DNA of 10,468 bases from Candidatus Iainarchaeum sp. (lineage in GTDB: Archaea; Iainarchaeota; Iainarchaeia; Iainarchaeales; GCA-2688035), in assembly GCA_028713935.1 (NCBI GenBank), contig JAQTNI010000041.1, forward strand, positions 1-10,468. The letters run 5' to 3'. The notes under the pieces were generated by a model. That model was given only the letters and a program-made list of their open reading frames with translations. It had not been told where the DNA came from and did no database searches. Positions 9,418 to 10,468 of this stretch are shown piece by piece. Both the position numbers and the translations under genes were made by a program. The stretch's first letter is position 1, and each line of letters starts with the position of its first letter.

Positions 9418-10011
9418 TTGAAAGCGTTTGATGTTGCACCTGGAAGGCTTGTTGAAGCAACTGCACTGGAACTGGAAAAGCTTGGCACAAAGGCGCCTGA
9501 ATGGGCTTTGTTTGTCAAGACTGGCTCGCACAGGGAAAGAGCGCCTCATAAGAGGGATTGGTGGCAGTTCAGGCTTGCAAGCATTCTTTACAGGATTTTA
9601 CGGGAAGGCCCGATTGGAACCCAGAGATTGAGAACTTATTATGGTGGAAGGAAAAACAGGGGAGTTGCGCCTCCAGTATTCAGGAGATCCGGAGGAAAAA
9701 TTATCCGGGTTTGCCTGCAGGAATTGGAAAAGCTTGGCTTTGTGCAAAAAAACAAGGCAGGCGGAAGAATTATTTCCGCAAAAGGCAATGCGTTTTTGGA
9801 TAAAATGGCAAAAGAAGCGGCAAGAATTGAAGCAGAAGAAACAGCCCATGCTGTTGAGAGAAAAGCAGAAAAGGAAAGGGAAAGGGCGAAAAAAGACGCT
9901 GAAGAAAGAAAAGTAAAGGAAGAGCTCAGAAAAATCGGGGGTGCGCCTGACAAGAAGCATGAAAAAAAGGCTGTGAAAAAGAAAAAGTCCGAAGGCGAAA
10001 CAAATGAATGA
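9418..10011 (+). CDS. rps19e: 30S ribosomal protein S19e with a Lys/Glu-rich C-terminal extension
   Basis: PEWALFVKTGSHRERAP..RDWWQFRLASILYRILREGPIGTQRLRTYYGGRKNRGVAPPVFRRSGGKIIRVCLQELEKLGFV is the S19e signature. The listed start is TTG. About 65 aa of tail follow the conserved domain. Confidence 0.9.
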   Translation: MKAFDVAPGRLVEATALELEKLGTKAPEWALFVKTGSHRERAPHKRDWWQFRLASILYRILREGPIGTQRLRTYYGGRKNRGVAPPVFRRSGGKIIRVCLQELEKLGFVQKNKAGGRIISAKGNAFLDKMAKEAARIEAEETAHAVERKAEKERERAKKDAEERKVKEELRKIGGAPDKKHEKKAVKKKKSEGETNE

Positions 10012-10276
10012 GCGGCCTGAAGAAAGCAATTCCGCAAAACAGGAAAAAATTGAAGCAGAGCTTGAAGAAGGCCTGCGAATGGCTCTTACCCAAGAAGCCA
10101 AAATGCGGCTTGGCAATGTAAAGCTTGTAAATCAGGAACTTTATTACAAGGCTGTCCAGGCAATTCTGTATCTTGTAAAAAGCGGAAGGATAAGCGGAAA
10201 AATTGATGAGGCGCAAATAAAGCAATTGTTGGAAAAATTATCTGTAAAAAGGGAAATTAGCATTAGACGGAGATGA
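10004..10276 (+). CDS. PDCD5/TFAR19-like double-stranded DNA-binding protein
   Basis: 90-aa ORF. LTQEAKMRLGNVKLVNQELYYKAVQAILYLVKSGRISGKIDEAQIKQLLEKL fits the archaeal PDCD5-homolog pattern. It overlaps the S19e stop by 8 nt, which suggests an operon. Confidence 0.75.
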   Translation: MNERPEESNSAKQEKIEAELEEGLRMALTQEAKMRLGNVKLVNQELYYKAVQAILYLVKSGRISGKIDEAQIKQLLEKLSVKREISIRRR

Positions 10277-10280
10277 AAAA

Positions 10281-10364
10281 CAAAGTTTGTTTACCAAAGA
10301 TAAAGGTTCTTTTTCTTTGGGCAACTTGCACTTTCTTTTTCTTTGAAAGAAAAAGAAAGTGCAG
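10281..10364 (+). repeat. A-family repeat, copy A3, not next to a tRNA, with a perfect 17-bp hairpin
   Basis: agtttgtttaccaaagataaagg, ggttctttttctttgggcaac (10305-10325), and hairpin 10328-10362 (gcactttctttttcttt / g / aaagaaaaagaaagtgc), then ag. Confidence 0.75.
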
Positions 10365-10392
10365 AAGGGAAATTAGCATTAGGAGAAGATGA
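10365..10392 (+). repeat. Second copy of a 28-bp direct repeat (first copy 10249-10276, the last 8 codons plus stop of the PDCD5-like gene)
   Basis: aagggaaattagcattagacggagatga versus aagggaaattagcattaggagaagatga. That is 25/28 identical, and both read REISIRRR-stop in frame. Confidence 0.8.
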
Positions 10393-10401
10393 GTTGGTGA
10401 T

Positions 10402-10468
10402 ATGTCGAGCAATAAGGATTCTGAGTTTAAGGAATTTTTGATTAGTTCCAGGAAAAAAATTGGGCCCG
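10402..10468 (+). CDS. 5' end of an unidentified gene (runs off the window)
   Basis: ATG 10402 is preceded by ttGGTGAt (SD-like). The frame stays open to the window end (MSSNKDSEFKEFLISSRKKIGP...). Confidence 0.35.
   Translation, partial: MSSNKDSEFKEFLISSRKKIGP

Follow-up and report, generated by a model that had tools for sequence, protein, structure and literature searches.

The window analysed here is a stretch of 10,468 nt from a metagenomic contig of Candidatus Iainarchaeum sp. Toward its right end, the gene for a PDCD5-like DNA-binding protein is separated from the next gene of its operon by an 88-nt repeat element (A3), and the end of the PDCD5-like gene is present on both sides of this element. 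This arrangement raises the question of how a repeat came to lie in an operon junction with a gene end duplicated around it, and of why the two copies of the gene end differ only at synonymous positions. The junction contains the following features:

10004 to 10276, + strand: PDCD5-like DNA-binding protein gene, 90 aa, ending with copy 1 (open reading frame, translation, PF01984)
10249 to 10276, + strand: copy 1 (T), the functional last 8 codons and TGA of the PDCD5-like gene, plus 1 base before them (repeat finder, D18)
10277 to 10306, + strand: left part of A3 (V), lineage-specific, homologous to the A2 upstream region and outside the conserved core
10307 to 10319, + strand: upstream pyrimidine tract of A3, ttctttttctttg, which mirrors the hairpin 5' arm; candidate third (Hoogsteen) strand
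10320 to 10325, + strand: invariant GGCAAC linker of A3 (family alignment)
10326 to 10364, + strand: TTGCAC, pyrimidine arm, purine arm and GTGCAG of A3 (repeat finder I18, fold, covariation)
10365 to 10392, + strand: copy 2 (T'), a spare gene end that runs directly into the native sequence before the next gene (repeat D18, relatives)
10393 to 10401, + strand: native 9-nt spacer with a Shine-Dalgarno-like GGTGAT; L230 and L002 keep GGTG(AT) before the ATG
10402 to 10468, + strand: start of the next gene, MSSNKDSEFKEFLISSRKKIGP, which runs off the window (open reading frame, operon position)

Copy 1 (10249-10276; AAGGGAAATTAGCATTAGACGGAGATGA) and copy 2 (10365-10392; AAGGGAAATTAGCATTAGGAGAAGATGA) form a direct repeat in which 25 of 28 bases are identical and the start-to-start spacing is 116. 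Read by eye, both translate as R E I S I R R R stop, and all three differences between them (aga cgg aga in copy 1, agg aga aga in copy 2) are synonymous changes in Arg codons, as the initial annotation of this locus had described. Local alignment of the A3 flanks gave z = 10.3-10.5 relative to shuffles, with none of 100-200 shuffles reaching the score, and the 28-base direct repeat is thus far beyond chance. The TGA of copy 2 (10390-10392) is followed by 9 nt, gttGGTGAT, and then by the ATG at 10402. The gene that starts there encodes a small basic protein, in the L39e position of an S19e-PDCD5-x-L31e-eIF6 operon, and has no match in Pfam. The upstream open reading frame (10004-10276) matched the PF01984 dsDNA_bind/PDCD5-like profile; an exact-protein look-up found no record of this PDCD5-like protein.

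Additional features of the surrounding reading frames were observed. The S19e homologue (9418-10011) is 197 aa long, compared with a 137-position profile, and has ~60 additional C-terminal residues rich in Lys and Glu; the PDCD5-like gene starts before the S19e stop, with an overlap at 10004-10011. An ATG at 10273, in an ATGA overlap with the PDCD5 stop, is the start of a 39-codon reading frame, MKNKVCLPKIKVLFLWATCTFFFFERKRKCRREISIRRR, which runs through A3 to the copy 2 TGA (10273-10392). A second ATGA in the same segment opens a tiny reading frame, MSW-stop, with a single nucleotide between its end and the ATG of the next gene. The reading frames at these two ATGA overlaps may form a ribosome relay or may be a coincidence.

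The initial annotation had also proposed that a tight operon junction was ancestral and that A3 entered it later, in which case orthologous loci should include empty sites. Such sites were found, and the proposal stands. The closest relatives found were L001 (79% PDCD5 identity) and L002 (71%; Candidatus Iainarchaeum or 'ainarchaeum'), which have in common the gene order Rpr2, S19e, PDCD5, small basic protein, L31e, eIF6, LX and prefoldin. In both genomes, the PDCD5 stop is separated from the ATG of the same MSSNKDSEFKEF gene by only 20-22 nt, with no insert; because these junctions are empty, A3 is an insertion. In the more distant L230 (55% identity), TGAtGGTGATtaaATG follows directly after the PDCD5 stop and resembles copy 2 of the window together with TGAgttGGTGATATG. 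From the comparison of L001, L002 and L230, copy 2 and its spacer therefore correspond to the ancestral tight junction. L230 also carries, at 1794-1878, a hairpin-containing 83-nt spacer of a different kind at the junction between PDCD5 and the next gene. This junction is thus a repeated target of insertions.

An A-family insertion that is independent of A3 was found in L134, a 71% relative with the same operon. Here the element lies at the eIF6/LX overlap (TAATG; minus strand, oriented 2190-2370; L002 1780-1902), and 33 nt of the eIF6 end are duplicated, with four differences between the copies, all of them synonymous. The eIF6/LX junction is empty in four relatives (L001, L227, L228 and L229). 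A search for closer relatives with a filled eIF6 site returned genomes of which the nearest are 76-77% identical, all with empty sites.

The DNA between the two copies of the PDCD5 gene end (A3; 10277-10364, 88 nt) is homologous to two other elements of the window, A1 (about 258-379) and A2 (about 1248-1331):

258 to 379, + strand: A1, a family copy that abuts tRNA-Val; conserved core at about 323-379, with a tandem partial unit before it
1248 to 1331, + strand: A2, a family copy separated by 1 nt from the intron-containing tRNA that follows it (1333-1488), with a partial unit (1213-1245) before it

The last G of A1 is position 1 of tRNA-Val. The hairpin of A3 is a perfect 18-bp stem (10327-10344 with 10346-10363; fold z = -6.1), and its conserved right end is at 10364. 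Within the left part of A3, a TATA-like TTTACCAA is located at 10290-10297, 30 nt before GGGCAAC. The A3 tract ttctttttcttt mirrors the 5' arm AAGAAAAAGAAA in parallel register with the purine arm, which is the arrangement that characterizes the family, and A1, A2 and A3 all match the family regular expression.

The surroundings of A1 and A2 contain further repeats. A tandem partial unit, consisting of a tract and a degenerate GGCAAC, precedes each of them (267-336 and 1213-1289), and the second unit of A1 has a strong TATA-like TTTAAAATATAA about 31 nt before GGCAAC. The tRNA at 1333-1488 has an intron of ~85 nt and is detected by the Rfam tRNA model, although it was missed in a default ARAGORN run. 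A second repeat family, B, is present at 58-105, 1368-1415 and 1487-1534 as GGCCTTTTCTT-loop-AGAAAAGCC, CTGGG and GAAAAGAA, and resembles a reversed A architecture, that is, a hairpin followed by a mirror purine tract. One B copy, with its hairpin, sits within the intron of the tRNA at 1333-1488, and another directly follows the 3' end of the same tRNA.

The conserved core of the A family is ~55 nt long and consists of a pyrimidine tract, the invariant GGCAAC, YTRCAY, a pyrimidine arm, a short loop, a purine arm and GGGCRG. Public metagenomes were searched with a pattern, and one genome per species was then scanned more strictly; the family regular expression (pyrimidine tract, GGCAAC, YTRCAY, pyrimidine arm, loop, purine arm and (G/T)GCRG) yielded 131-136 elements. 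The genomes that carry them are labelled as Iainarchaeota/Diapherotrites, Micrarchaeota, Pacearchaeota, Aenigmatarchaeota, Nanoarchaeia, Undinarchaeota and Forterrea, and one MAG is labelled as Altiarchaeota, a lineage that is not usually counted among the DPANN archaea. Intron-aware tRNA prediction placed 35 of 131 copies inside tRNA introns, 32 of these 35 in the opposite orientation, and a further 21 of the 131 copies have a tRNA within 5 nt of the GGGCRG end. Family copies are found mainly at tRNA introns and tRNA ends.

Rfam models detected only tRNAs above their gathering scores in the window, and Rfam holds no model of this family; the best matches on A3, to snoR137 (E = 0.51) and to a miRNA model (E = 0.22), were both far below the thresholds. 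Literature searches for the motif strings, and for DPANN in combination with triple-helix or MITE terms, returned nothing relevant. The family is undescribed, being present neither in Rfam nor in the searchable literature. Several possible functions of the conserved sequence were considered and rejected. There is no family-wide TATA-like signal at a fixed distance, as would be expected of a promoter within the conserved element; copies in the window have a TTTAYCAA TATA-like box 30 nt upstream of GGCAAC, and a promoter at A elements is at most lineage-specific. A conserved peptide is not encoded, since the reading frames of the window and L134 read the core in different frames, that of L069 contains a stop, and that of L089 lacks a start. 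Finally, minimum free energy folds of four T-E-T' regions yielded only the element hairpin, with no pairing of the junctions such as a bulge-helix-bulge intron would require.

The alignment of the family revealed a strong dependence among the three strands of the core. In 136 non-redundant copies, 97.7% of the positions of the upstream tract were compatible with the purine arm when the two were read in parallel register. At informative C/G positions, 187 of 214 (87%) matched, compared with 21.5 ± 2.4% (maximum 30%) when tracts and arms were paired at random, and at least seven different tract patterns covaried with the purine arm. The first base of YTRCAY covaried with the R of GGGCRG in 132 of 136 copies (T:A in 83, C:G in 49, other combinations in 4). 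Because the tract and arm covary, as do these two single positions, the element is a constrained fold and more than a decaying repeat. The register is that predicted for a pyrimidine-motif triple helix, unlike that of an alternative Watson-Crick hairpin, and suggests that the family may fold into an intramolecular triple helix. Three-strand covariation is among the clearest signatures of such a structure that sequence alone can provide, and the motif is common to DPANN phyla. Cores with such a mirror tract are located at 323-379, 1276-1331 and 10307-10364 of the window and in loci L008-L226.

To determine how often A elements are flanked by duplications, we aligned the 250 nt before each of the 131 copies with the 60 nt after it, using a threshold score of ≥16. 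Sixteen copies (about 12%) reached this score, compared with 3 of 648 mismatched-pair controls (0.5%), and after removal of two paralogous tRNA pairs and one tandem array, about 15 duplication cases remained. The duplications are 16-36 nt long, and the downstream copy begins 0-6 nt after GGGCRG. Between the upstream copy and GGCAAC lie 11 to 199 nt, and the inserted DNA therefore has a fixed right end (GGGCRG) and a variable left end. Apart from the segments at L161 and L187, which are unannotatable, all duplicated segments include a gene terminus or junction:

Protein 3' ends: window (PDCD5), L134 (eIF6), L089 (S7-like), L069, L123
Stop-to-start junctions: L190 (L34e), L221, L078 (where the insert is another hairpin)
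Gene start: L129, 23/23
tRNA 3' ends, starting in the T-loop: L225 (Ile), L198 (His), L209, L167, L204
tRNA 5' end: L020, 18/18

Several of these duplications (L129, L020, L209, L225 and L198) are perfect copies of local gene sequence, so that the local target is the source of the duplicated DNA. Both neighbouring genes survive because the duplication spans a gene terminus, and this preservation of the neighbours is probably why such cases persist in genomes that are nearly without spacers. Family members elsewhere thus do have flanking duplications, with lengths of 16-36 nt, but flank alignment detected none at A1 and A2, the two other copies in the window.

Some of these loci have further properties of their own. 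Two Undinarchaeota species share a block of ~235 nt with roughly 95% identity (L209, 3809-4000; L225, 1186-1380), which comprises the left part, the core, the spare copy and a further hairpin, W, and which adjoins a different tRNA in each species. The spare copy embedded in this block is, in each species, the 3' end of the local tRNA. The W block downstream of T' was found nowhere else. In L034 (360-450) and L194 (2690-2870), an unrelated small hairpin insert, ATCAAGCTTTAGGAAAGCTTGAGC, is located beside an A-family copy and is accompanied by a duplication of ~25 nt of a tRNA-Cys 3' end (17-18 nt as scored in L194). Because the non-family hairpin inserts at L034/L194 and L078 have gene-end duplications, such duplication is not exclusive to the A family, and the duplicating process may not be specific to the A element. 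Perfect tandem duplications of 50-68 nt, in which half an element and its flank are included, are present at L204 (648-810), L149 (2896-3085) and L224 (7772-7860) and point to recent local duplication around hairpins.

The copies of the duplicated protein-gene ends were also compared codon by codon. The five protein 3'-end cases contain 17 nucleotide differences in 14 codons, 13 of which are synonymous; the sole exception is a Thr/Ser change in L123. In 20,000 simulation runs, the spare copy was left to decay neutrally, while the functional copy either drifted at synonymous sites or did not. Under these models, 10-12 of the codons would be expected to be non-synonymous, and none of the runs had one or fewer. 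For the window alone, the probability of a synonymous-only pattern was 0.008-0.034, which is suggestive; the pattern becomes compelling only jointly with the other four cases. Spare tRNA ends, by contrast, decay non-functionally (L204, L161 and L167), and the coding pattern therefore does not hold for spare copies at large. Relatives differ freely in these same gene-end codons, so that a strong constraint on copy 2 at the nucleotide level is hard to defend.

These results bear on the two explanations that the initial annotation had offered. One was an unusually long target-site duplication followed by constrained drift. The duplication itself is supported by the perfect cases listed above, whereas unconstrained drift of the spare copy is rejected by the simulations at the level of the family. 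The other was that the element arrived with a replacement 3' end from a different lineage. Taken literally, as the work of an integrase, this fails for the lack of a shared target, the 50-120 nt length of the inserts, the absence of a recombinase from them and the findings at L209 and L225. Its core idea, namely that copies 1 and 2 descend from two functional gene ends of diverged lineages, nevertheless fits the data best, although we infer that the divergence reflects homologous recombination between lineages and not an att site.

If a plain target duplication had been followed by neutral drift, the synonymous-only pattern of the window would have to be a chance event, for which there is some room in the probability given above and in the location of the three differences in two adjacent, six-fold degenerate Arg codons; however, the four further independent coding cases are alike, and their joint occurrence in none of the 20,000 simulations makes chance a very unlikely explanation. 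Assembly error has even less to commend it. The window is a metagenomic contig and its element is multi-copy, and a repeat of this kind could have led the assembler to join two strain variants of a gene end. Yet at least 15 contigs, drawn from a wide range of samples and MAG projects, have the same architecture, which makes misassembly unlikely. The left insertion junction of L134 is also found in the Logan-run contig L002, possibly from the same reads. In addition, the 18-nt stretch shared by the copies is shorter than the k-mers of typical final assembly rounds, and we consider an artefact extremely improbable.

Purifying selection on copy 2 itself, after a long target duplication, would also preserve its codons. 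Copy 2 might act as a translation-initiation region or as the end of a small upstream reading frame that hands ribosomes on to the next gene. In the window, L134 and L123, the next gene starts directly downstream of copy 2, and the 39-codon reading frame that begins at 10273 in the window ends precisely at its TGA. L134 has a similar reading frame, and copy 2 there is in its own right a mini-ORF, MKIDEGLGGE-stop, that overlaps the next ATG as TAATG, and at L078 the three differences are all in the defunct part of copy 1, with none in the spare coding sequence of copy 2. Translation cannot be general, however, since there is a stop codon in frame at L069 and no in-frame start codon at L089. Moreover, ribosome hand-over needs no conservation of amino acids, and in relatives where the same 30 nt have a dual role, they are free to vary at synonymous and at some non-synonymous sites. 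On balance, selection of this kind is an unlikely cause of the pattern. Integration of the att type, in which the gene end carried by the element replaces the native end and leaves it behind as copy 2, agrees with the extension of the duplicated blocks to gene termini. At tRNAs, the blocks run from the T-loop (positions about 57-59) to the 3' end, and many tRNA-integrating elements likewise duplicate the segment from the T-loop to the tRNA 3' end. The spare copy is also nearer to relatives than the functional copy at L134, where relatives have GGA TTA/CTA, the spare copy GGA TTG and the functional copy GGG CTT, and the same holds weakly in the window. On the other hand, the targets (PDCD5, eIF6 and S7-like ends, a gene start and several tRNAs) have no common sequence, and the inserts of 50-120 nt have no recombinase gene and no evident inverted core sites. 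Closely related elements at L209 and L225 lie at different tRNAs, each with a perfect local duplication, and the junction-spanning duplications at L190 and L221 have the geometry of ordinary target duplication. The diversity of targets and the L209/L225 comparison led us to reject the literal integrase model, and we give att-type integration only a slim chance. An attempt to identify the foreign copy from the codons of relatives was likewise abandoned, as the signal is weak and the relatives are only 71-79% identical.

The account that we put forward has two steps, an insertion with a long target duplication and a later recombination with diverged functional alleles, and we consider the chances that it is correct to be about even. 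In the first step, which the data show in outline, an element copy with about 30 nt of lineage-specific left flank inserted at the junction of PDCD5 and the gene in the L39e position. Insertion duplicates 16-36 nt of the target, with the right end fixed at GGGCRG and the left end variable. In compact operons, survivors would be expected only where the duplication spans the gene boundary, such that copy 1 completes the upstream gene and copy 2 preserves the native region upstream of the downstream gene. In the second step, one flank would be replaced through homologous recombination with a diverged allele that lacks the insert, either after the insertion or while the insert spreads between related lineages. 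An exchange tract could extend across the duplicated segment but not past the edge of the insert, to which nothing in those alleles corresponds. Either copy could thus be overwritten by a working gene end, which would leave synonymous differences only. Several observations count against this account, among them the duplications at non-family hairpin inserts. Divergence between T and T' amounts to 7-25% of nucleotides, which is high for recombination within a species. In both the window and L134, a reading frame in the frame of copy 2 crosses the insert, and selection linked to translation of copy 2 may therefore act at these two loci. The family could be linked to no transposase, integrase or reverse transcriptase.

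The molecular process behind the duplication may be transposition-like staggered cutting, template switching at the hairpin or copying from an RNA template. In formal terms, a right end that is fixed, a left end that varies and duplications of differing length are reminiscent of target-primed copying. A DNA-level route by template switching at a hairpin or triplex is equally plausible, since it would fit the perfect tandem duplications at L204, L149, L209 and L224, the partial tandem units of A1 and A2, and the similar duplications at unrelated hairpin inserts (L034/L194 and L078).

A bolder reading is that the A family is a self-propagating element with an intramolecular pyrimidine-purine-pyrimidine triple helix, whose new copies derive from an RNA intermediate, the 5' leader released from a pre-tRNA; we regard this as quite improbable. 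The right end of A3 falls at the tRNA -1/+1 boundary that is observed for A1 and A2. Its left end (AACAAAG...) aligns with the A2 locus from inside the GGCAAC of the upstream partial unit, at a point about 30 nt downstream of a TATA-like box, a distance at which a transcription start would be expected. Both ends of A3 thus match the predicted ends of a tRNA 5' leader, and an origin from leader RNA is speculative. If it were true, capture of leader RNA or target-primed copying would generate the fixed 3' end, the variable 5' end and the duplications of 16-36 nt, and would represent a SINE-like process in archaea that operates without a known reverse transcriptase.

Whichever process is responsible, the arrangement first noted in the window is more general, and its insertion signature recurs with other copies of a DPANN repeat that is undescribed and structurally constrained. 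Repeats can enter nearly spacerless operon junctions without killing either gene when the gene terminus is duplicated. If recombination keeps the spare ends functional-looking, these sites would serve as markers of exchange between diverged, uncultured lineages. For annotation, duplicated gene ends and reading frames through the repeat can be miscalled as genes.

Several known systems resemble the A family in part. Like MITEs such as Correia elements, and like REP/BIME sequences, its members are short, multi-copy, hairpin-forming, non-coding and intergenic, and insert with a target duplication; promoter or terminator signals and the splitting of operons are also possible in all of these. However, the target duplications of MITEs are typically 2-10 nt and fixed in length, compared with 16-36 nt and variable here. 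MITEs have terminal inverted repeats, whereas A elements have none, their left ends being variable and unrelated and only the internal hairpin being palindromic. The A family differs further from these repeats in its core, which is conserved across archaeal phyla, in its three-strand covariation and in its location chiefly in the introns, leaders and trailers of tRNAs. Integrative elements at the 3' ends of tRNA and protein genes likewise generate direct repeats that extend to the gene terminus, with an intact gene and a displaced spare end, and their two copies may differ while both look functional. In contrast, A inserts are only 50-120 nt long, encode no recombinase, have unrelated targets without a common core att sequence, and show perfect local duplications at different tRNAs. 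Target-primed insertion of SINEs and LINEs is similar with respect to variable-length duplications, a fixed 3' and a variable 5' end and an association with tRNA genes, but neither a reverse transcriptase nor a poly(A)-like tail was found for the A family, and the likeness is formal only; archaea are not known to have insertion of this type.

H-DNA mirror repeats and RNA triple helices of the MALAT1/PAN ENE type share with the A core a homopurine/homopyrimidine mirror repeat with its third strand in register for T.A-T and C+.G-C triples. The A family differs from them in that its three strands are all part of a single strand, which also contains a Watson-Crick hairpin and invariant linkers; within tRNA introns, most copies are oriented such that RNA would form the less stable purine-motif triplex. 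Mitochondrial mobile ORFs bring a foreign replacement C-terminus to the gene 3' ends at which they insert, and leave the resident end downstream. They thus share with A3 a duplicated gene end, a resident end downstream and a functional copy of foreign origin, which in A3 is putative, although they encode a homing endonuclease, whereas the A insert carries no ORF. Taken together, these comparisons place the A family among small non-autonomous repeats, in which it is unusual for its long and variable duplications of gene termini, its functional-looking spare coding ends and its three-strand covariation.
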